Assembly: GCA_002503985.1 (NCBI GenBank)
Contig: DASW01000003.1
Coordinates: 221,394 to 285,393 of the forward strand
Direction of reading: 5' to 3'
Source of the DNA: Thermoplasmata archaeon UBA61
GTDB lineage: Archaea > Thermoplasmatota > Thermoplasmata > Lutacidiplasmatales > UBA184
Length of the DNA stretch: 64,000 bases
Shown: piece by piece, positions 6,272 to 57,200 of the stretch
Layout: every line of letters starts with the position of its first letter
Numbering within the stretch: position 1 is the first letter of the stretch
The notes under the pieces: model-generated
Seen by the model: only the letters and a program-made list of their open reading frames with translations
Told to the model about the DNA's origin: nothing
Database searches by the model: none
Program-made: the position numbers and the translations under genes

Positions 6272-6763
6272 ATGTCGGTAGCACGATTCTGGCGCGAAAC
6301 TCCTCGACGGTACAACCTCGGCGGCTCGAAGTGCACCATGTGCGGGACGGTCTACTTCCCGCCCCGCGCCGTCTGTCCGGAGTGCACGAGCCATCGGCAG
6401 TCGATCGAGAAGATGGTGCCGTACCAGCTCTCCGGTGAAGGCGAGGTGATCTCGTACACCATCGTCCACGACGCGGCCGAAGGGTTCGAGATGCAGGTCC
6501 CGTACGCGCTCGGCCTGGTGAAGACGCCCGAGGGTCCGGTCCTCACCGGGCAGATCGTGGACATCGAGCCGGAGACCGTAGCGATCGGCCTCAAGGTCCG
6601 GGCTACCTTCCGAAAGCTCCGAGAGGAAGGCGCCTCCGGGGTCATCCACTACGGGTACAAGTTCACCCCGCTCGACGAATCCGGGATCCTTCCCTCCGCT
6701 CGAGGGCCGGCCGCTCCGGCGCCGGCGAAGGACGCCCCCGGCCCGGAACGGACCTCGACGTGA
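6272..6763 (+). CDS. DUF35 OB-fold / zinc-ribbon protein (thiolase-HMGCS complex scaffold)
   Basis: A CxxC...CxxC ribbon (CTMCGTVYFPPRAVCPEC) followed by an OB fold. It occupies the canonical position after the thiolase. Confidence 0.85.
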   Translation: MSVARFWRETPRRYNLGGSKCTMCGTVYFPPRAVCPECTSHRQSIEKMVPYQLSGEGEVISYTIVHDAAEGFEMQVPYALGLVKTPEGPVLTGQIVDIEPETVAIGLKVRATFRKLREEGASGVIHYGYKFTPLDESGILPSARGPAAPAPAKDAPGPERTST

Positions 6764-7548
6764 GCGCTCCCGAGAGACGAACCGCCGCCGTCCCCCCGCC
6801 CGCCGAAGAGCCCCCGGCGGACGAGGAGTACGCGCGCGCCTACGCCGCCGGTTACGAGGAAGGAGTGCGGGGAGCGCTCCGAGAGACCCTCGAACACATC
6901 ACCCACGGTCACACCCCCCAGGAGATCCGGATGCTGACGGCGAGCCGACTCGCCCGCCTCTCCGAAGAGGTCGACCTGAAGCGCAAGAGCCTCCTAGGTC
7001 CCCCGCGACGCCCTGCGTGGGGCTCCCTCCTCCGGCCCCCGGCACCGGCGCGGGCCTGGACCGGGCCGGTCACCGCCGCTTCGGCCCCCGCGTATCGGCT
7101 TCTCCCGGGGCACTCGCTCCTCGTGCGCGAGGAACGGCCGGCCCGTGCGGTCGAGATCCTGCGCGCGAACGCCGCCGCCTTTCCCCGGCTCGCGGTCGTT
7201 TCGATGCGACCTCCCGAGGTGCCGGGACTCCCGGCGGACCATCGCCTCGACCTCACGGTGGGCGGCCCGGGGACCCCGGCCGACCCGAACCAGGGCTCGC
7301 TTACGCCGGGGGAGATCAGCGGTCGTCTGCGGGACCCCACAGAGGCGCCCGGCGGCGCCCTCGTGTACGTCGACGCGCTCGAGTTCCTGGCGACCGAGCA
7401 CAGCCTCGAGACGACGGTCAAGTTCGTCCACTGGCTGGTGACGCAGGCGCAGGAGACCGGGTCCGCGCTCCTCGTCTCGTTCGACCCGCGCGCCCTCGAC
7501 GTCCGCGACGTGAGTCGCCTCGAGCGGGCGTTCGAAAGCGTCCTCTGA
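6760..7548 (+). CDS. DUF835 domain-containing protein
   Basis: GTG start overlaps the DUF35 stop (GTGA). The C-terminal GALVYVDALEFLATEHSLETTVKFVHWLVTQAQETGSALLVSFDPRALD matches the DUF835 consensus pattern (memory-based). Confidence 0.5.
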   Translation: MSAPERRTAAVPPPAEEPPADEEYARAYAAGYEEGVRGALRETLEHITHGHTPQEIRMLTASRLARLSEEVDLKRKSLLGPPRRPAWGSLLRPPAPARAWTGPVTAASAPAYRLLPGHSLLVREERPARAVEILRANAAAFPRLAVVSMRPPEVPGLPADHRLDLTVGGPGTPADPNQGSLTPGEISGRLRDPTEAPGGALVYVDALEFLATEHSLETTVKFVHWLVTQAQETGSALLVSFDPRALDVRDVSRLERAFESVL

Positions 7549-7551
7549 CCT

Positions 7552-9024
7552 TCACCAGACGAGCCGGCCGCGCGCCGCGAGAGGGAGGTCGCTCGGTCGG
7601 CGCCGTCGTACGACCCGCCATCCCTCGAACATCGCCTCGACCCGGCCCGATGCGTCCCGAAGGAAACGGATCGAACCGCGTTGACCGCGGATGCGGGTGA
7701 CGAACTCGTCGTCCCCCGCGTCGCGCAACCGAATGTTCTTCGTGATCGCTTCGATGCCTCGGAAGTCCAGACGCAAGTGGTCCTTGCGGGGGCGCACCTC
7801 GGCCCAGATCCCCTCACCGGAGCAGTACCACCCTACGTACGGCCGAGTCGGCCCCGGCGTGCGCAACGGCTGGGGGATTTCCTCGAACGGGGTCCTGGGA
7901 GGCAGGCCGAGCGCGAGGTTGATCGCGGCGGTGAGCACGGGTTCCATCGGGGAGGTGTCGGCGTTCGAGAGGGCCGCGCCGGCGATGCCCTTTCGGGGGA
8001 CGGCCGCGATGAACGAACTCACGCCCTTGAGACCCCCGCTGTGGTGGACGAGGAGCGTCCCGTGGTAATCGGGGCGCACCGCGAGGCCGTAGCCGTAGTG
8101 AACGCCGTGCCGGATCGGCACGTGCGGCCGGACCATCTCGGCGACCGAGCTCGCCGAGACGATCCGCTCTCGGCCGACCCGACCTCCCGTGAGAAAGATC
8201 TGGAGGTACTGCAGCAGGTCGGTCACGTTCGTGCGCAGCGCCCCAGCGCCGCGCAGGCACGTGTCCTCCCACCATTCTTCGCTCGGAACGAGCGAATGCC
8301 GTTGACCCGTCCAGCGCGGAGAATACAGCGTCGTGACCTCGGGCTGGCGGAACAGGACCCCGGTGTCGAAGGTGGTCGAGGCCATTCCCGCCGGCCGGAG
8401 GAGCTCCTCCTCGAGGAAGCTCTCGTACGTCCGCCCGGATGCCCGCTCGATGATCACTCCGAGGAGCCCGAACCCCTCGTTCGAGTAACTGAAGCATGCG
8501 CCGGGAGGTCCAAGAAGACGGTACTTCTCCTCCGAAAGGTAGCGCATGAGCTGTTCGTAGGTGTCGATCGGCACGTGGTCGGGGTCCACTCCGACGCGCC
8601 GGGCGACCCGAGGGTCGTACGGCGGGTCGCGCCGGACGCTGCGCATGGACGTGTAGTAGATGGACGGGAGAGGCGGCAGGCCAGAACTGTGGGTCAGGAA
8701 GTGGTGGATCCGGATCGGTCGACGGGAGCTCGCCCCCGGGATCCGTAGCTCGGGCAGGTGGCGGGCCACCGGGTCACTGACCTTCAGGAGACCGTGCTCG
8801 GCCAGTCGCAGGACCGCGAGTGCCGTGAACGACTTCGTGACCGAGGCGATCCCGTAGAGGGTCCGGGGGGTGGCGGGAAGTTTCGCCTCGCGGTTCCGGA
8901 ACCCGTACCCTTGGGCGAAGGGTGCCCGCCCCGGGCGCAGGAGGCCGAGTGAGACGCCGGGGGTCTTCGCGCGGGCCATCCCCCGCCGGACGATCTGGTC
9001 GAGGCCCTTGAGCTCGTTCGCCAT
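7552..9024 (-). CDS. serine hydrolase, beta-lactamase/PBP family
   Basis: 490 aa with SVTK (S-x-x-K), YSN and HSGG motifs. Confidence 0.8.
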   Translation of the reverse strand: MANELKGLDQIVRRGMARAKTPGVSLGLLRPGRAPFAQGYGFRNREAKLPATPRTLYGIASVTKSFTALAVLRLAEHGLLKVSDPVARHLPELRIPGASSRRPIRIHHFLTHSSGLPPLPSIYYTSMRSVRRDPPYDPRVARRVGVDPDHVPIDTYEQLMRYLSEEKYRLLGPPGACFSYSNEGFGLLGVIIERASGRTYESFLEEELLRPAGMASTTFDTGVLFRQPEVTTLYSPRWTGQRHSLVPSEEWWEDTCLRGAGALRTNVTDLLQYLQIFLTGGRVGRERIVSASSVAEMVRPHVPIRHGVHYGYGLAVRPDYHGTLLVHHSGGLKGVSSFIAAVPRKGIAGAALSNADTSPMEPVLTAAINLALGLPPRTPFEEIPQPLRTPGPTRPYVGWYCSGEGIWAEVRPRKDHLRLDFRGIEAITKNIRLRDAGDDEFVTRIRGQRGSIRFLRDASGRVEAMFEGWRVVRRRRPSDLPLAARGRLVW

Positions 9025-10287: not shown

Positions 10288-10354
10288 ACGGGCGGGCCTG
10301 TCGGGAGTTTCCGCCCCGAACGGCCGGCGTCCGGGACCTTTGAACCCGAGTTCA

Positions 10355-10371
10355 CTGGCTTAGAAGGCCAG
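10355..10371. terminator. hairpin (CTGGCT-TAGAA-GGCCAG) followed by a T-containing tract, between convergent genes
   Basis: 6-bp stem (one G-U pair) with a 5-nt loop, located in the 137-nt convergent intergenic region. Confidence 0.2.
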
Positions 10372-10424
10372 GACTTTGTCCATGCTAAGCTACAGGCCCG
10401 GGAGCCCGACGGCTTCCGCCCTCC

Positions 10425-13753: not shown

Positions 13754-14808
13754 CTCGCCTCGAGCGAGACCTTAGCGGCTTGCATCGATTCGATCAGGCC
13801 CATCGCGCTCGGCAGGTCGCGGATCGGGACCCGGTGCGTGATGATCTGGTTCATCTTCTCCCGGAAGGCGGCGTCGGCGAGAAGCCCCTTCACCTGGAAC
13901 CAGGTCTCGAACATCCGCCGGCCGTAGATCCCGTGGACCTTGGCCGCCTTGAAGATCACCGCGTCGTTGAAATTGAGGCTCACATCGTGGTCGAACAGAC
14001 CGAGCAGAGAGACGCGGCCCCCCGGGGTGAGCGCGTCGAAGGCGAGCTTGAGCGCCGCGGGATGACCGGCCATCTCGACCGCCACGTCCACGCCGCGGCC
14101 TTCGGTCTCCTCTCGAATGGTCTTCACGGCGGGGGTGTTCGGGTCCGTCGGGTCCAGCACGCGGTCCGCTCCCATCTTCTTCGCGAGGGAGGCACGCAGC
14201 GGGTTCACCTCGGTCGCGAACACCCGTCGGGCCCCGAGGGTCCGCGCGACGGCGATCGCGAGGAGCCCGATCGGTCCGCATCCCGAGACGAGGACCGTCC
14301 CACCGGCGATGTCCTCGAGGTTCTCCTCGGGCAGGAGGGAATGGACGGCGTTCCCGAGCGGCTCCTGGATGGAGGCGAGCGCGGGGTCGAGGTGGGGGTC
14401 GTTCTTCCAGGCGTTCAGTTCGGGCAGCACCGCGAACTCGGCGAACACCCCGTTGCGGTGGACTCCCAGCACCTGGACGTTCTCGCAGATGTGCATCTTC
14501 CCGGTGCGGCACTGGTAGCACGTGCCGTCAACGATGTGCGTCTCCGCCGACACGCGGTCGCCCACCCGTAGGCTGCGGACCCGCTTGCCGACCTCGACGA
14601 CCTCCCCGCACACCTCGTGGCCGGGGATCATCGGGACATGGGAGACGTGGGCCTGCGCCCACTCGTTCCAGACCCAGATGTGGACGTCCGTACCGCAGAT
14701 GGAGGACGCCAGGACCCGGATCAGAACCTCGTCATCGGCCGGCTTCGGCTCGGGAACCGTTCGTATCTCGGCGCCCGGACCTCGCTCGGTCTTCACGAAT
14801 GCCTGCAT
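13747..14808 (-). CDS. tdh: L-threonine 3-dehydrogenase (Zn-dependent MDR family)
   Basis: 353 aa with a CGTDVHIW zinc motif and a GCGPIG Rossmann motif. Paired with kbl. Confidence 0.82.
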   Translation of the reverse strand: MQAFVKTERGPGAEIRTVPEPKPADDEVLIRVLASSICGTDVHIWVWNEWAQAHVSHVPMIPGHEVCGEVVEVGKRVRSLRVGDRVSAETHIVDGTCYQCRTGKMHICENVQVLGVHRNGVFAEFAVLPELNAWKNDPHLDPALASIQEPLGNAVHSLLPEENLEDIAGGTVLVSGCGPIGLLAIAVARTLGARRVFATEVNPLRASLAKKMGADRVLDPTDPNTPAVKTIREETEGRGVDVAVEMAGHPAALKLAFDALTPGGRVSLLGLFDHDVSLNFNDAVIFKAAKVHGIYGRRMFETWFQVKGLLADAAFREKMNQIITHRVPIRDLPSAMGLIESMQAAKVSLEARW

Positions 14809-14994
14809 AACCGTCCGCTCCGGCCCGTGGAGGGCATCGGCCGCTTAACGGTTGGGGAGTTCGACCGGTCCGGCGGAGCGAGCGCGACCGTCCGTCGCTC
14901 TACGCGCGCGTCCGATGCCGTACGAAGCGTCGCGTCGGTTTTCGAGGAGAAACACCGCTCTCTGACGGTCCCGGACCTTCGCGCGCGCGAGCGC

Positions 14995-15001
14995 TTATAT
15001 A
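14995..15001 (+). promoter_or_regulatory. TATA box (TTATATA) upstream of the ribosomal-protein operon (L3)
   Basis: GC-rich BRE-like stretch plus TTATATA about 50 nt before the L3 ATG, within the 243-nt divergent intergenic region. Confidence 0.4.
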
Positions 15002-15051
15002 GGGCACCCTTCTCCCCCGCCCGCACCGGAGGCAGGACCTCCTATCGACCC

Positions 15052-16053
15052 ATGGCTCGACGGCATCGCCCGAGGCGAGGATCCCTCGCATTCTCCCCCC
15101 GCTCCCGGGCCGTGAGGCCCGTTCCGAGGGTCCGTTCTTGGGCTCCCGGAGCGAAACCGGTCGCGATCGAGGGATTCGCCGGCTTCAAGGTCGGCATGAC
15201 CCACGCCTTCATTGTGGATTACCGCAAGCGGTCGACCACCGCGGGCCAGGAAGTATCCATCCCCGTGACCGTGGTCGAGGTCCCCCCCCTGCGGGTCGTA
15301 GCCGCCCGCCTGTACGCGCGCAACCCCTACGGCGCGCGCGTCGTCTCCGAGGTCTGGGCGACCGGCCTGGCGGAGGAGCTCTCGCGGCGGATCCCGAAGC
15401 ACCCCGCGAGCCCACCCGAGGCCCTCGAGGCGTTCGGGAAGGCCCCAGGGGACGAAGTGCGCCTCATCGTCCACACGCAACCGCAGCTCATCACCGGGAC
15501 CGGTTCGAAGACGCCCAACCTGTTCGAGGTCCGGGTCTCGGGAGACAAGTTCGACGAGCGTCGGGCCTTCGCGCTCGAGCAGCTCGGCCAGGAGGTCCCC
15601 GCCGACCGGCTGACCAAGGAAGGGGAGTTCCTGGACGTCATCGGGGTCACCAAGGGGTTCGGGTTCCAAGGCCACATCCAGCGGTGGGGCGTGAAGCTCC
15701 AGCCCCGCAAGAACTCGAAGCACCGGAGGATGATCGGAACCCTCGGACCCCACAATCCGAGCTTCGTCACCTACCGGATCCCCCAGGCCGGCCAGCAAGG
15801 CTACCACCGCCGCACCCAGTTCAACATGCGGGTCCTCAAGATCGTCCGTGACCCGCGCGCGGACCCCATCACGCCCGCCGGTGGGTTCCCGCACTATGGA
15901 GAGGTCCAGAGCGCGTGCATCGTCCTCCACGGCTCGCTTCCTGGGCCCGCGAAGCGTCTTCTGAGGTTCCGCGCCCCGATGCGGAGCCACGTCACCTCGG
16001 TCGAGAAGGTCGACCTGCGCTACTTCAGCACCCGTTCGAAGCAGGGAGCCTGA
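15052..16053 (+). CDS. rpl3: 50S ribosomal protein L3 (uL3)
   Basis: Starts MARRHRPRRGSLAFSPRSRA, the typical archaeal L3 N-terminus. The in-frame upstream part of the 14617..16053 ORF was rejected. Confidence 0.93.
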   Translation: MARRHRPRRGSLAFSPRSRAVRPVPRVRSWAPGAKPVAIEGFAGFKVGMTHAFIVDYRKRSTTAGQEVSIPVTVVEVPPLRVVAARLYARNPYGARVVSEVWATGLAEELSRRIPKHPASPPEALEAFGKAPGDEVRLIVHTQPQLITGTGSKTPNLFEVRVSGDKFDERRAFALEQLGQEVPADRLTKEGEFLDVIGVTKGFGFQGHIQRWGVKLQPRKNSKHRRMIGTLGPHNPSFVTYRIPQAGQQGYHRRTQFNMRVLKIVRDPRADPITPAGGFPHYGEVQSACIVLHGSLPGPAKRLLRFRAPMRSHVTSVEKVDLRYFSTRSKQGA

Positions 16054-50863: not shown

Positions 50864-52225
50864 ATGCCCCATCCCGCATCCGTCCGGCGCGACGAGGACG
50901 ACGAGCCGGAGGAGGACGAGGAAGAGGAAATCGACGACGACGATGAGGGGGAAGAGCCCCCTCCCCGTCGGCGCGGGCGACCTCCTTCGCGACGGCGCCA
51001 CCCTCGCCAGCGCGCGCACCCGGTCCGCCGTTGGCGTGCGTCGGATGGCGACGAGGACGAGGAAGAGGAAGAAGAGGCGGAGGAGAGGCTTTCGACCCGT
51101 CGTGGCCTCACCCCACCGAAGAAGCCGCCGACCTATTGGCGCGCTCGGGATTCGCTGTTCTTCGAGCCTCTGGTCGCGCTCGCGATCATCGTGGTGCTCC
51201 TCGTTGCGCTCTTCGCCTACACTCAGAATTGGCCCCCGGTGTACGTCGTCGAGTCGGACAGCATGCAGCATGGGTATTCCGACCAGGTCGGTCTCATCAA
51301 CACCGGGGACCTGGTCCTCGCCCAGAAGGTCCCCCTATCGGAGATCACCCCCTACGTGACGGGGATTCAAACCGGATACTCGACGTACGGAGAACACGGC
51401 GACGTGATCCTCTACTGGCCCAACGGCCAGGGGTCGACGCCCATCATCCATCGGGCGATCCTGTACCTGACGTGGGACCCGTCGGGGCGGTCCTACAGCG
51501 CCCCGGACCTCGCCGGCCTTCCGTGCGGGAACGAGCCGAACGCGGTGTACTCGTACATCGCCGAGCCGGGAGCCCCTCCAGACTGCCGGTACACGAACCT
51601 CACCGGCACTCTCGACCTCTACCGGATCGGGTGGCAGTCGGTGAACATCTCCATCCCCATGAATCCGTCGACCCTCGGAGGTCAGTCGGGCTTCCTGACG
51701 ATGGGAGACAACAACGTCGCCCCAGACCAGTTGGCGGTGCCCGCCCTCAGCACGCTCGTTCAATCCGGCTGGATCGTGGGGGTCGCGCGGGGCATGGTCC
51801 CATGGTTCGGGGCCATCAAACTCCTCCTACAAGGACAGGCCGGTGATGTACCCCCGCAATCCTGGCAGTTCATGGGCCTCACGGTCGTCGGTATCATCCT
51901 GGTCGCGTTCGGGATCCACTACGCCTTCCGGACGGAAGGCATCGAAACGCCTCTCCGCAGAGAGGAAGAGGAGGCCGCTCGCGCGCAGGCCGAGGCGGAA
52001 GCCGAGTCCGAGCCGCCGGAAACCGGACCGCGTCGATGGCTCTCGAGGCTGCGCCGAAGGCATCCGGAGGACGAGGAGGAGACGGAAGCCGAGGAGCCGA
52101 CCCGGCAACGGACCCGGACGCGGCCCCCACCCTCCCACACGCCCGCCCACCGGGGTCGCCCGGCACCCCGTGTCCGCCGACCCCCGAAGCCGGCGAAGAA
52201 GCGCGATTCCCACGACGAACTGTAG
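50864..52225 (+). CDS. signal peptidase I (S26B, archaeal/eukaryal type) with polyacidic N-terminal and charged C-terminal extensions
   Basis: Boxes in order: SDSM (Ser), GDLVL, IIHRAI (His) and GDNN. A TM anchor precedes the catalytic domain and the first 90 aa are Asp/Glu/Arg-rich. Confidence 0.62.
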   Translation: MPHPASVRRDEDDEPEEDEEEEIDDDDEGEEPPPRRRGRPPSRRRHPRQRAHPVRRWRASDGDEDEEEEEEAEERLSTRRGLTPPKKPPTYWRARDSLFFEPLVALAIIVVLLVALFAYTQNWPPVYVVESDSMQHGYSDQVGLINTGDLVLAQKVPLSEITPYVTGIQTGYSTYGEHGDVILYWPNGQGSTPIIHRAILYLTWDPSGRSYSAPDLAGLPCGNEPNAVYSYIAEPGAPPDCRYTNLTGTLDLYRIGWQSVNISIPMNPSTLGGQSGFLTMGDNNVAPDQLAVPALSTLVQSGWIVGVARGMVPWFGAIKLLLQGQAGDVPPQSWQFMGLTVVGIILVAFGIHYAFRTEGIETPLRREEEEAARAQAEAEAESEPPETGPRRWLSRLRRRHPEDEEETEAEEPTRQRTRTRPPPSHTPAHRGRPAPRVRRPPKPAKKRDSHDEL

Positions 52226-53238: not shown

Positions 53239-54204
53239 GTGAACGACCCCCTACGGGCGAGCGAAGCGCGCTCGGACGAGCTGCTCGAGGTCGTTCATGA
53301 GGTCCGAAAGGCCCTCCTCGCCCGGGACGAATCACCCGCGGGGGACTGGGTCGAGCGGACCGCCGAGGAACTTCGTTCGGGACGGACCCCCGGGTGGTAC
53401 TACCCGAGCGACCCCGGAGCCGGTGTCTCCTTCTATTCCCTCAGCGGAGAGGAAGCCTATGGACACGTCCACGTGGCCGAGGGGGCCGGAGCCGTCGACC
53501 GAGGGGAACGCCTCACCGCCGCGCTCTTGGAAGGCCTGCCGACCGTGGTTCGGTCGGTCAACATCGGGTTCACCGGTCTTTCGCCCGCGCACGAAGAGGA
53601 GCTTTTGGGGCGGCTCGCAGAGCGCCCCGGGGCGACCGTCCTCGAGCGCATGGCCATGGAGCGGTCCCTCAGCATCGAGGACGGACGACCCCCCGGCCCG
53701 GTGCCGGACCAACTCTCGCTCGTCCCGATCCGCGCGGTGACGGTCGACGCGCTCGCCGACCTCGACTTCCGCTCCGTCCGCGGGAGCCCGGACGCGCTGC
53801 TGATCGGCGACCGGGTCGAGGAGTACCGCCGCGTGACCGAGGCGCTGATCGGCGGCAGCCTGGGGCGGTTCCTGGACGAAGCGTCGACCGCCCTGTACCT
53901 ACCCGACCCTCCTCGGCTCGTGGGAGCCATCCTCTCGGCCGAACGTTCCCCGCGCAAGGGGATCTTTGTGAACTTCATGGTCGACCCTGAGTTCCGACGG
54001 CGGGGCTACGGGCACTACCTGTTCCGGTGGGGATTGAGGGCCCTCTGGGCCCTCGGCTACGAGCGCGTTCACCTCTGGGTGACGGCCGCCAACGAACCGG
54101 CGCGCCGACTATACCACGAGTTCCATCTCGAACCGACCGTGCGGTCCACGATCTACCGCGTCACGCGGGAGTCCGGTCCGCCGCAACCGCATTCCGACCG
54201 GTAG
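53239..54204 (+). CDS. GNAT acetyltransferase domain protein with unrecognised N-terminal domain
   Basis: C-terminal FVNFMVDPEFRRRGYG acetyl-CoA motif. A GTG start is assumed. Confidence 0.5.
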   Translation: MNDPLRASEARSDELLEVVHEVRKALLARDESPAGDWVERTAEELRSGRTPGWYYPSDPGAGVSFYSLSGEEAYGHVHVAEGAGAVDRGERLTAALLEGLPTVVRSVNIGFTGLSPAHEEELLGRLAERPGATVLERMAMERSLSIEDGRPPGPVPDQLSLVPIRAVTVDALADLDFRSVRGSPDALLIGDRVEEYRRVTEALIGGSLGRFLDEASTALYLPDPPRLVGAILSAERSPRKGIFVNFMVDPEFRRRGYGHYLFRWGLRALWALGYERVHLWVTAANEPARRLYHEFHLEPTVRSTIYRVTRESGPPQPHSDR

Positions 54205-55457
54205 GGACAGTCCGAGGTCATCCAATCCGGGCAGGCCAGCAGGCCCGCGGGGGCCCGGTCCCGGATCGCAACGGCGAGGTCTCGGCTACGCTCTCGATAG
54301 AACCGGGAGAACGGGGTGAGCGAAGCGAACCGTAGCTCGAGGACCTGGACCCGGTCTCGGTCGACCTCGGCCCGCTCGAAACCGACCACGACGACCCCGG
54401 ATTCCGTCCCCGTGGTGGCGCACCGAAGGCCGAGCTCGAGAGCGTACTGAGGGGCCCGCGCGACCAGCTCGTCCGCCCGGAACCGAGACCACGCGCGGGA
54501 AGTCTTGATCAACAGAGGACGGCCCCGGAACCCCACCACCTCCTCCTCAGGCTCGGGCCCCCGGGCCGGCAGCCGCGCCACCTCGCCCGCCGGACCGCTC
54601 TCGAGGGCCTCGGTCAGCCGGGAATAAAGGTCCGGCGTCCACGAGGGGGGCAGTACCTCTCGAGGCGGGGGGCTCGGTGGGGGCGGGGCCGGGACGGCGA
54701 CCGGGGCGGTCCGGTCGAAGTAGGCGCGCCGGGGGTAGAGGAGCTCCCGAAAACGACCGACGGGTTCCGTGCCCTCGCTGGAGCGGGGCTCGGAAAGCGC
54801 GACACGGACCCGGTCCCGTACGTCGTCCCTCGACGAGATGGTCTCGACTTCTTCGAAGATGGCGCGGGGGGACGGCTCCTCCCGGCCGGTGCACGCGCAC
54901 ACCGATGCCTCCTCGAACTCACAGCCCCGACCGAACCAGGGACATCTCGGAAGCCGGTCGACGCGGGCCTCGGTGAGGGCCGCACGGAGCAGGTCGGCCC
55001 TTCGTCGCATCTCGGAGAGGATCGGTGGGGTCGACCGGAACACGAGGTCCACGGCCTGCACTTCGGAGACCCCCTTCGGGCCGGCGACCAGCGTGAGCAG
55101 TCGGCCGGAAGGGCGGTCGACGAGCGCGCAGTACATCCCGAGCTGCTCGACGTGGTCGGGTCGATAGGTCGGGAGGTTCGTCGGGTCGACCAGCGAGGTG
55201 GCCGTCTTGACCTCGACCGGAAGCTCGGAGAGGATGTCGATCCGACCGACGAGACCGTCCCGACGGACTCGCGCCTCGAGGGTCCCCTCGCCGGAGAGGC
55301 GAGCGCCCAGGGTCCTGTGGAGGGCGCGGCCCTGGTCGAGCCGGGCCTGACGTTCGGGAGGGATGGGAACGGCGGGTCTGACGGCCCGATAGAAGGCCCG
55401 GCGGAGGTTGATGAGGTCGGTGACCCCGACGGACCTCTTCCCGCTCTGCCGTCCCAT
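54153..55457 (-). CDS. Cas4/RecB-family-like PD-(D/E)xK nuclease domain protein with additional Cys-rich C-terminal region (orphan)
   Basis: Motifs in order: SVTDLINLRRAFY, GRIDILSELPVEVKT (D...E-x-K), HVEQLGMY (Q-h-x-x-Y) and Cys cluster CPWFGRGCEFEEASVCAC. The C-terminal 190 aa carry a second cluster, CPDWMTSDCPYRSECGCG. Start taken at ATG 55457; the track ORF extends to 55643. Confidence 0.42.
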   Translation of the reverse strand: MGRQSGKRSVGVTDLINLRRAFYRAVRPAVPIPPERQARLDQGRALHRTLGARLSGEGTLEARVRRDGLVGRIDILSELPVEVKTATSLVDPTNLPTYRPDHVEQLGMYCALVDRPSGRLLTLVAGPKGVSEVQAVDLVFRSTPPILSEMRRRADLLRAALTEARVDRLPRCPWFGRGCEFEEASVCACTGREEPSPRAIFEEVETISSRDDVRDRVRVALSEPRSSEGTEPVGRFRELLYPRRAYFDRTAPVAVPAPPPPSPPPREVLPPSWTPDLYSRLTEALESGPAGEVARLPARGPEPEEEVVGFRGRPLLIKTSRAWSRFRADELVARAPQYALELGLRCATTGTESGVVVVGFERAEVDRDRVQVLELRFASLTPFSRFYRERSRDLAVAIRDRAPAGLLACPDWMTSDCPYRSECGCGGPDSRVTR

Positions 55458-55631
55458 GCGGGTGGTGAGCTCGCCCCCCAGCGCTGCGTCCTCCCGTACG
55501 GAGACGACCGCCTGCCAGGGGTTCGGGGATGCGGATTCGTCCACGGGCACGGTACCCCGAGGCCGGAGGGGTATACGACCGTCCCGCTCGCATGGGGAAG
55601 CCGCTATACCACGCGCCCGGCTCGCTGCGAT

Positions 55632-57200
55632 GTGCACGACCACGCCGGTCGTCCGCTCGTCGTCGGAACGGGCATCGCGGGCCTCTACGTCGCGCTTCGC
55701 TGCCGGGAGCTCGGCCTCCGACCCACGTTGATCACGAAGTCTCGTCTTGAGGAATCCAACACGCGGTACGCTCAGGGGGGGATCGCCTCAGCGGTCGGGC
55801 CCGACGATTCCCCGACCCTTCACCTGGCGGATACGCTGCGCGCGGGGGCCGGGCTGGTCGACCGCGCCGCGGCGAAGGCGCTCACGTACGAGGCCCCGGC
55901 CCGGATCGCGGACCTCGTCCGGTACGGGGTCCCCTTCGACACGATCGAGGGGCAAGTGTCTCTGGGACGAGAGGCCGCACACTCCCGGAGCCGGATCCTC
56001 CACGCCGGTGGAGATGCGACCGGCGCCTCGATCGAAGAGACCCTGAAACGACGGGTCCTGGACGCGGGCATCGAGGTTCGGGAGCGGACGGTTCTCCGGG
56101 GGCTACGGTCGACCGGTCGGGAGGGAATGGTCGCCCTCATCTCGAACGACCGCGGCCGTAACGTGGAGGAGACCGAGGCCGGCCCGGTGGTCCTGGCGAC
56201 CGGCGGCGCGGCCAGCCTCTACCGGCAGAGCACGAACCCCTCGGTGGCGACGGGAGAGGGTCTCGCGATCGCCTTCCGGGTGGGAGCGCTCCTCACCGAC
56301 ATGGAGTTCATCCAGTTCCACCCCACGGTCTTCTGGCGGGAGGGGGCGCCGCGCTATCTGATCACGGAAGCGATCCGGGGAGAGGGCGCCGTCCTTCGCA
56401 ACGAAGCCGGCGAGCGGTTCCTGGTCGGCCACCACCGGGACGCCGAGCTCGCCCCCCGCGACATCGTCTCCCGGGCCGTCGACCGCGAGATCCACCGGTC
56501 CGGCCACCCGTGCGTCTACCTGGACGCGACCGCGATCCCGCGGGACCGCATCTTTGCTCGGTTCCCCTCCGTCTGCCGGTTCCTCGCCACGTACGGCCTC
56601 GACCCGTCGCGCGACTGGATCCCGGTGACGCCCGCCGCCCACTACATGATCGGAGGCGTGACGACCGACCTCGAGGGCCGAACGAGCCTCCCCGGCCTCT
56701 ACGCGTGCGGGGAGGTCGCGTCGACCGGCGTCCATGGGGCCAATCGGCTGGCGAGCAACTCGCTTCTCGAGGGGCTCGTGTTCGGGGAGCGGGTCGCGCG
56801 CGAGCTCGTGAACCCGGTCGCGAGCTCCCTCCCGCCCCCCGGTCGGCTGGTCCGATTCGACTGGCCCCCCGGTGCGGGGCGGGGCGACCTGCCCCGGGCC
56901 TTCGACCGGGTCCGTGACCTCCTCTGGGACAACGTCGGGATCGTCCGCACCGGGGCCGGCCTTCGGACTGCGCTCGAGGAGCTGGCGGAGCTCGGTCGGT
57001 CGACCGAGCCCAGCCGAGCCTCCGAGCTTCCGGGGCCGGTCGCGAACGCCATCCTGACCGCCTCGCTCGTCTCGCGCGCGGCACTTACCCGCACGGAGAG
57101 CCGAGGGGCCCACTACCGCTCCGACTTCCCGCTCCGCCGGCCCACGTGGCGGCTCCACGTCGGGATCCTTCGGAAGCCGTCCGCCGGTCGCCGCCGATAG
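55632..57200 (+). CDS. nadB: L-aspartate oxidase
   Basis: GTG start gives (M)HDHAGRPLVVGTGIAGL, the FAD dinucleotide fold, followed by succinate-DH/fumarate-reductase flavoprotein-family motifs. Confidence 0.82.
   Translation: MHDHAGRPLVVGTGIAGLYVALRCRELGLRPTLITKSRLEESNTRYAQGGIASAVGPDDSPTLHLADTLRAGAGLVDRAAAKALTYEAPARIADLVRYGVPFDTIEGQVSLGREAAHSRSRILHAGGDATGASIEETLKRRVLDAGIEVRERTVLRGLRSTGREGMVALISNDRGRNVEETEAGPVVLATGGAASLYRQSTNPSVATGEGLAIAFRVGALLTDMEFIQFHPTVFWREGAPRYLITEAIRGEGAVLRNEAGERFLVGHHRDAELAPRDIVSRAVDREIHRSGHPCVYLDATAIPRDRIFARFPSVCRFLATYGLDPSRDWIPVTPAAHYMIGGVTTDLEGRTSLPGLYACGEVASTGVHGANRLASNSLLEGLVFGERVARELVNPVASSLPPPGRLVRFDWPPGAGRGDLPRAFDRVRDLLWDNVGIVRTGAGLRTALEELAELGRSTEPSRASELPGPVANAILTASLVSRAALTRTESRGAHYRSDFPLRRPTWRLHVGILRKPSAGRRR

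Follow-up and report, generated by a model that had tools for sequence, protein, structure and literature searches.

The stretch of DNA analysed here, called the window in the following, comprises 64,000 nucleotides of contig DASW01000003.1 (positions 221,394 to 285,393 of the forward strand) of Thermoplasmata archaeon UBA61. Among its genes is the block acd, nadB, a gene for a "hypothetical protein", a GNAT gene and prs. The hypothetical protein is the subject of this study. It is encoded on the minus strand between the divergent nadB (55632-57200) and the convergent GNAT gene (53239..54204, plus strand). According to our analysis it consists of two domains of the Cas4/RecB nuclease type, of which the first is predicted to be catalytically active and the second appears to be an inactivated duplicate of the first.

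The longest reading of the frame is an open reading frame (ORF) of 496 amino acids at 54153..55643 on the minus strand. Its GC content at codon positions 1, 2 and 3 (0.74/0.56/0.84) agrees with that in the flanking genes prs, nadB and acd; the coding-type pattern is found from about codon 50 on, and the first ~30 codons are less coding-like. The N-termini of 36 aligned homologues coincide with a GTG codon at 55550. The top database match (P0001, "hypothetical protein [Thermoplasmata archaeon]") is 100% identical and has 465 amino acids; the identical 465-residue protein is annotated in public metagenome-assembled genomes (MAGs), and at this identical public locus nadB lies divergently 81 nt upstream. 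Since the homologues begin at this GTG, the public protein has 465 residues and the longer ORF crosses the nadB start at 55632, the coding sequence is most likely 54153..55550, with the GTG start at 55550 and a TAG stop at 54153-54155. A start at 55643 was rejected, as the additional 31 codons (55551..55643, minus strand) are absent in the homologues and run over the nadB start. This extension is probably untranslated and holds the divergent promoter region shared with nadB. The intergenic gap between the two divergent genes is 81 nt long (55551-55631). Two hexamers in it resemble a TATA box: GTATAC (55571-55576) precedes the nuclease GTG at 55550 by ~23 nt, and CTATAC (~55604-55609) precedes the GTG of nadB by ~25 nt. 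From this we infer that their arrangement suggests back-to-back archaeal promoters giving leaderless mRNAs. A scan for bacterial-type promoters and terminators returned nothing relevant, as expected for an archaeon.

Residue numbers refer throughout to the 465-residue protein, and conservation was read from two alignments, one of 36 close homologues and one of 28 diverse members at 20-53% identity. The N-terminal Cas4/RecB-like PD-(D/E)xK domain comprises residues ~12-230 (54861..55517, minus strand, as are all features of the protein given below). The sequence GRALH (G74-H78; 55317..55331) is probably RecB motif I. G74 and H78 are invariant in the 36 close homologues, and H78 is found in 24 of the 28 diverse members; going by general knowledge of the RecB family, we take H78 to be the metal-binding His of this motif. 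The catalytic motifs II and III (GRID...PVEVKT; 55206..55238) provide D105 and E113-V-K115, and the QhxxY motif reads Q136-L-G-M-Y140 within EQLGMY (55131..55145). All residues named from these three motifs, i. e. the Asp and Glu-x-Lys as well as Q136 and Y140, are invariant in 36/36 close and 28/28 diverse members. QhxxY is directly followed by C141 in 94% of the close and 54% of the diverse members. With H78, D105, E113, K115, Q136 and Y140 all kept, the metal-dependent nuclease site of the N-half is intact, and the domain is predicted to be active. The motifs listed in the initial annotation, which had described a nuclease of the Cas4/RecB type in this part of the protein, were all found and are conserved in the homologues of both alignments.

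The predicted fold agrees with the motifs. The AlphaFold2 model of the protein is confident (pLDDT 86.5, pTM 0.86), and its best structural match in the fold comparison is Cas4 SSO0001. A predicted structure lacking a PD-(D/E)xK fold had been named as the outcome that would speak against a nuclease; the model does have this fold. The PADLOC Cas4 hidden Markov model (HMM) matched the protein over residues 62-174 (E 2.4e-4). PF12705 (PDDEXK_1) is the only curated family that any member reaches over its threshold: three homologues exceed the gathering score, with 24.2-27.8 bits against a cutoff of 22, over the core of the N-half through the Cys region. At relaxed E values it was matched by 8 of the 36 close homologues (E<1) and 6 of the 28 diverse members; the window protein itself stayed below the reporting level.

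The C-terminal domain, residues ~235-458 (54177..54848), was initially described as an extra Cys-rich domain. It is, however, not unrelated to the first. When columns 60-262 of the alignment were compared with columns 285-494 by hhalign, the two halves aligned over 172 columns with a probability of 98.4% (E 6e-15), pairing RRAFYR with YPRRAYF, PVEVKT with PLLIKT, EQLGMYC with LELGLRC and CPWF..C..CxC with CPDW..C..CxC. The order of the predicted secondary structure elements is identical in both halves. By profile comparison, the C-half is an internal duplicate of the N-terminal domain. Nearly all full-length representatives have this tandem architecture with both halves kept, and so do members with as little as 20% identity.

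The duplicate has lost the catalytic residues. The counterpart of the ExK motif, P345-L-L347-I-K349-T-S351 (54498..54518), corresponds to P-V-E113-V-K115-T in the N-half and has Leu in place of the catalytic Glu; this Leu is found in 36/36 close homologues, and the wider family has L, I or V here. At the position of D105 the C-half has P328 or is variable, and at those of Q136 and Y140 it has E372 and R376 or is variable. Only the Lys position remains basic (R/K). We therefore rejected the possibility that both halves are active, because every acidic catalytic residue is gone from the C-half, which is a pseudo-nuclease by prediction. Mean identity within the order is 0.59 for the N-half and 0.57 for the C-half; in the wide family the values are 0.30 and 0.23, respectively. 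Within the order the C-half is about as conserved as the active half, its faster divergence being confined to the wide family, and it has therefore presumably retained a non-catalytic function. In net charge and pI the halves do not differ in an informative way. A Pro-rich stretch, which had been described as a linker in front of the second domain, is indeed present (residues ~286-306; 54633..54695). However, it is not an inter-domain linker: the boundary of the repeats and domains lies near residue 231, and the stretch is a loop inside the second repeat. It is predicted with low confidence (pLDDT <50 for residues 286-298), and its length and sequence vary among the homologues.

Each half ends with four conserved cysteines. 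In the N-half the motif CPWFGRGCEFEEASVCAC contributes C203-x6-C210-x7-C218-x-C220 (54891..54944), which is conserved in the homologues, with C210, C218 and C220 in 28/28 and C203 in 27/28 diverse members. In the C-half the terminal motif CPDWMTSDCPYRSECGCG contributes C440-x7-C448-x5-C454-x-C456 (54183..54233; codon positions checked on the sequence). Of these, C440, C448 and C454 each occur in 27/28 of the diverse members, and the fourth Cys is found at position 456 or 452 in 19/28. C141 and C377 are extra cysteines at equivalent positions of the two halves, common but not universal. In Cas4, AddB, Dna2, Exo5 and ACE1, one Cys near the N-terminus and three near the C-terminus staple the domain around an Fe-S cluster (PMC3466216, PMC12094033, PMC5704561). 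In the present family all four cysteines of each half follow the core, and N-terminal of either core no alignment column reaches 25% Cys. The place of the canonical 'CP' with the staple Cys is taken in the N-half by the N-terminal helix motif TDLINLRR (residues 44-51; 55398..55421), which reads N-L in the window protein and N-P in the wider family (N48/P49 in 26 of the 28 diverse members); close relatives have A, S or N at the Cys position. In the C-half this place reads (Y/T/F)-P. Thus both the lack of the usual first Cys and the C-terminal Cys cluster of the first domain, which had already been noticed in the single sequence, turned out to be features of the family. The Cys sites could be structural metal centres, either Fe-S or Zn; DUF3799 (3L0A), which has a related fold, was crystallised with Zn (PMC3466216).

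More than 268 homologues were found in a search of 5.8 billion proteins. Almost all of them are "hypothetical proteins" from soil or peat Thermoplasmata MAGs of the Lutacidiplasmatales/UBA184-like type. HMMER detected 507 members at E<=1e-3 and 119 at E<=1e-30 among 1.84 billion cluster representatives; the full-length representatives nearly all have 440-500 residues and were matched over both halves. A scan of the GTDB contigs with one genome per species, which was pattern-based and by design recovers only family-like sequences, yielded 79 loci, again nearly all from soil or peat Thermoplasmata MAGs, including UBA184 and one "Ca. Lutacidiplasmatales". The GC content of the window, ~69-70%, agrees with the ~69% of Lutacidiplasmatales (PMC9287336). 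The block acd-nadB-gene-GNAT-prs is kept in 78 of 79 species-level Thermoplasmata loci. Distant members lie in other housekeeping contexts, beside TFB, mevalonate-pathway genes, TtuA or PRK. Since these contexts are unrelated, the synteny with nadB, GNAT and prs reflects an order-wide conservation of gene order and not a functional operon. The gene is chromosomal, present at a single locus and inherited vertically, and it is surrounded by housekeeping genes. One locus labelled as bacterial ('bacterium isolate clean3188') has the complete archaeal synteny block, so that its label is probably wrong and the MAG one of Thermoplasmata. Of the loci in the scan, only L081 (4084-5400), from an Armatimonadetes/CSP1-3 MAG, is clearly bacterial. 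It encodes a two-domain homologue with 32% identity; the position of this gene, with an SMP-30/NHL-repeat gene on one side and a PIN-domain gene on the other, points to horizontal transfer.

This distribution bears on the alternative that survives best, although we regard it as unlikely: a stand-alone defence nuclease that degrades invading plasmid or virus DNA. Members of the family give weak matches to the PADLOC Cas4 and DruK models; solo-Cas4 proteins were reported to interfere with plasmids (PMC12094033), and a defence role has also been proposed for the Argonaute-associated ACE1. Moreover, the nuclease has diverged more rapidly than its neighbours (identity across the loci 38-81% versus 71-97% for prs), and its occurrence in bacteria is patchy, the CSP1-3 homologue lying beside the PIN-domain gene. 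However, a gene that occupies the same syntenic housekeeping slot in all but one of the species-level genomes is the opposite of a mobile defence island. In the nine contexts inspected no cas, helicase, Argonaute or defence genes were found as neighbours. A Foldseek search against viral structures also gave no two-domain counterpart, but only single-domain Cas4-like nucleases with a query TM-score of at most 0.32.

Less probable still, and in our view quite doubtful, is a divergent solo-Cas4 that acts in trans with a Cas1-Cas2 adaptation module elsewhere in the genome. The best structural match and the weak Cas4 HMM matches point in this direction, and solo-Cas4 genes are common (PMC5704561). 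With regard to CRISPR, the 64-kb window contains no CRISPR-like repeat array, and Cas Pfam families are absent among the ORFs of 1-15 kb, 30-50 kb and ~46-63.5 kb (the last from the annotated identical locus, L004). The region of 15-30 kb, which lay outside the Cas Pfam scan, is by our own reading of its translations a ribosomal-protein/SecY cluster. The lack of cas genes and of an array in the window, asserted in the initial annotation, is confirmed to this extent. Linkage to cas1, cas2 or CRISPR, which is not required for a 'solo-Cas4', was likewise found neither in the ORFs scanned nor in the nine related contexts, and SSO0001 itself is not CRISPR-linked (PMC3466216).

The protein also departs from Cas4 in itself. 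It shares with Cas4 (COG1468) the RecB-type PD-(D/E)xK fold and, in the N-half, D...ExK and QhxxY; the C-half has P328, L347, E372 and R376 instead. The 1+3 Cys 'iron staple' is missing, and the curated thresholds of PF01930 and TIGR00372 are not reached: the best PF01930 match of any homologue scored 11.5 bits against a cutoff of 22.7, and TIGR00372 matched one of the 28 members (E 2.8e-4). A tandem with a dead half has not been reported for Cas4. Nor does the protein resemble AddB, Dna2 and Exo5 in their combination of an SF1 helicase fusion or operon with the staple cysteines, as it consists of two nuclease-fold domains only and has no helicase neighbour. Because the staple Cys is absent, the family lacks a defining feature of Cas4. 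Hence the description as 'Cas4/RecB-like' and orphan was right about the fold and the isolation of the gene, but does not extend to the Cas4 family as defined by the staple Cys and the thresholds. The protein is Cas4-like in fold but not a Cas4 sensu stricto; its place in the PD-(D/E)xK superfamily is probably near PF12705. The family can be grouped by its own features: the halves are homologous, the first is catalytically complete and the second is not, and each has a C-terminal four-Cys motif.

There is very little to be said for the view that nuclease function has been lost and that the protein is now a DNA-binding or structural metal-cluster protein comparable to TP1, the Cas4-derived nucleocapsid protein of TTV1. 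Exapted inactivated Cas4 domains are known (PMC5704561, PMC4625639) and one half is already inactivated, but in the N-half the catalytic residues do not vary even among members with only 20% overall identity, and without catalysis this is hard to explain. Finally, the reading of the ORF as an artefact of the GC-rich genome, either non-coding or, as raised initially, antisense, has practically no chance. A window with 70% GC does hold many long spurious ORFs in all frames, and the longest ORF probably begins with 31 non-coding codons, but the GC3 pattern of the frame is that of a coding region, the motifs are conserved across hundreds of homologues, the AlphaFold2 model is confident and no competing plus-strand gene exists at 54205-55631, so that by these tests the ORF is a genuine gene.

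At its 3' end the nuclease gene overlaps the GNAT gene tail-to-tail. The shared segment, initially estimated at about 50 nt, covers 54153..54204 and has a length of exactly 52 nt. It holds the codons of C454 and C456 of the nuclease and those of the C-terminal tail of the GNAT protein. The same length was found in 60 of 82 related loci, and most of the remaining loci have overlaps of 46-58 nt. The overlap persists though both proteins have diverged to ~40% identity, which implies a dual coding constraint and possibly antisense transcription. The GNAT neighbour itself (53239-54204, plus strand) has 321 residues, of which only the C-terminal ~90 match GNAT models, and its identity across the loci, 38-89%, is near that of the nuclease. 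Two-domain N-terminal acetyltransferases (e. g. 6WQB, 293 amino acids) align only with its C-terminal part. Its N-terminal ~200 residues may be a degenerate second GNAT-like domain and not a fusion to some other domain.

Some further features of the window and its relatives were recorded. At 50864-52225 (plus strand) a protein of 453 amino acids is encoded that is conserved in the synteny block and has no Pfam match in public annotations. Highly charged low-complexity tails rich in Asp, Glu and Arg at both termini surround a membrane-anchored core, whose 'SDSM...GDNN'-like signature is, in our own reading, reminiscent of signal peptidase I. The sole Rfam match in the window is a tRNA at 10331-10392 (minus strand; 30.5 bits versus a cutoff of 29), which covers only positions 8-63 of the model and may represent an atypical archaeal tRNA, for example a truncated or intron-containing one. 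In the locus of one related MAG (L001), in the region 6349-7782, nadB is called with 369 amino acids only and is preceded by a separate ORF of 71 amino acids; a frameshift, a pseudogene or an assembly error could explain this. In the same locus an IS605 OrfB/TnpB-type gene (Cas12f1-like_TNB) at 14329-15474 is located between the genes for eIF2-gamma and S6e, which are adjacent in other loci.

To return to the nuclease itself, the most probable interpretation is that it is a stand-alone, single-chain 'pseudo-dimer' of two Cas4/RecB-type domains, which arose by internal duplication and works as a DNA nuclease in DNA maintenance. We have high confidence in the structural and evolutionary part of this interpretation, and moderate to low confidence in the part concerning cellular role and substrate. 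The N-terminal domain would cleave DNA in a Mg2+/Mn2+-dependent manner. Its nearest structural relatives are Cas4 SSO0001, Dna2, Exo5, MGME1 and the nuclease domains of AddB/AdnAB. By analogy with SSO0001, AddB, Dna2, Exo5 and ACE1, the substrate would most likely be single-stranded DNA (ssDNA) ends or flaps, which would be threaded between the core and the Cys module. The C-terminal domain would pack onto the N-terminal domain as an intramolecular pseudo-dimer partner and support DNA binding or strand guidance as well as stability. The dead nuclease fold of RecC in RecBCD is a model for such a role. In the cell, the protein would then act in repair, recombination or the processing of replication intermediates rather than in CRISPR adaptation.

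Several points weigh against this interpretation. Single-sequence searches of Pfam, NCBIfam and PDB with the window protein gave no match (none at E<=1 for Pfam and NCBIfam), nor did a profile of the 36 sequences match PDB sequences; since the protein alone matched nothing in these searches, the tie to known families comes from the homologues and the fold comparison. Nuclease activity is a prediction for every member of the family. Substrate and polarity are extrapolated from structural neighbours, and these include endonucleases (ACE1) as well as the M. mazei Solo-Cas4, which prefers dsDNA (PMC12501428). 'DNA maintenance' is the default reading, because the gene neighbourhood gives no functional partner. 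Besides, a CRISPR-Cas system could exist elsewhere in the genome, as the survey covered the window and the related loci.

A more far-reaching version of the pseudo-dimer interpretation is conceivable, though we would not bet on it: the family could represent an unrecognised class of housekeeping archaeal nuclease, a single-chain active/dead Cas4-fold heterodimer in which each half has a re-invented non-staple four-Cys site, possibly a 4Fe-4S site. It would be a dedicated ssDNA-end or flap enzyme of Lutacidiplasmatales and relatives, which does the job of AddB, Dna2 and NurA-type nucleases without a helicase. If this were true, the presence of two clusters in so small a protein would also make redox- or DNA-mediated regulation possible.

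Nucleases of the Cas4/RecB fold are central to the processing of DNA breaks and to CRISPR adaptation, and the Fe-S 'iron staple' is treated as a hallmark of the family. The proteins described here indicate that this fold can be duplicated into a single-chain active/dead pair and that its putative metal site can be rebuilt wholly from C-terminal cysteines. They are thereby a natural test case for the purpose of staple and cluster. In addition, a conserved 'hypothetical protein' of essentially every sampled genome of an uncultured, globally distributed order of soil archaea receives an annotation, together with a caution against annotating such proteins automatically as CRISPR-associated. The enzyme family is a known one and the kind of system is not new, so that only a modest impact is to be expected.

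In the literature no description of a tandem or duplicated Cas4-like protein was found. Two features have no described counterpart, namely the duplication into an active and a dead copy within a single chain and the four-Cys sites, which in both halves are wholly C-terminal; PF12705 is a one-domain model and silent on the tandem architecture. The Solo-Cas4 of Methanosarcina mazei (PMC12501428) is archaeal and located outside CRISPR loci, as is the window protein, but it has a single domain with the canonical four cysteines and assembles into a large oligomer. In TP1, the nucleocapsid protein of TTV1, an inactivated Cas4 fold has been reused, but this protein is viral and wholly inactivated. 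Neither of the two joins an active and a dead copy in one chain. The domains of AddB/AdnAB, Dna2 and Exo5 are attached to or work with helicase motors and have the 1+3 staple, whereas the window protein has neither a helicase domain or neighbour nor the staple Cys. Among the nearest known systems is Cas4 SSO0001 from Saccharolobus solfataricus (PDB 4IC1). This Cas4-family enzyme is not CRISPR-linked; it contains a 4Fe-4S cluster and acts on ssDNA as a 5'-3' exonuclease. SSO0001 is a single domain of ~200 residues that oligomerises and has one N-terminal and three C-terminal cysteines. In contrast, the window protein is a tandem of 465 residues with a dead second domain, and all four cysteines are C-terminal to each core, with the spacings C-x6-C-x7-C-x-C and C-x7-C-x5-C-x-C. 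The C-half has its parallel in the C-terminal domain of RecC (PDB 1W36, chain C), which is likewise a dead RecB-like nuclease fold. In RecBCD, however, the dead and the active domain reside on different subunits of a helicase complex, whereas in the window protein they are fused in one small chain and derived by duplication.

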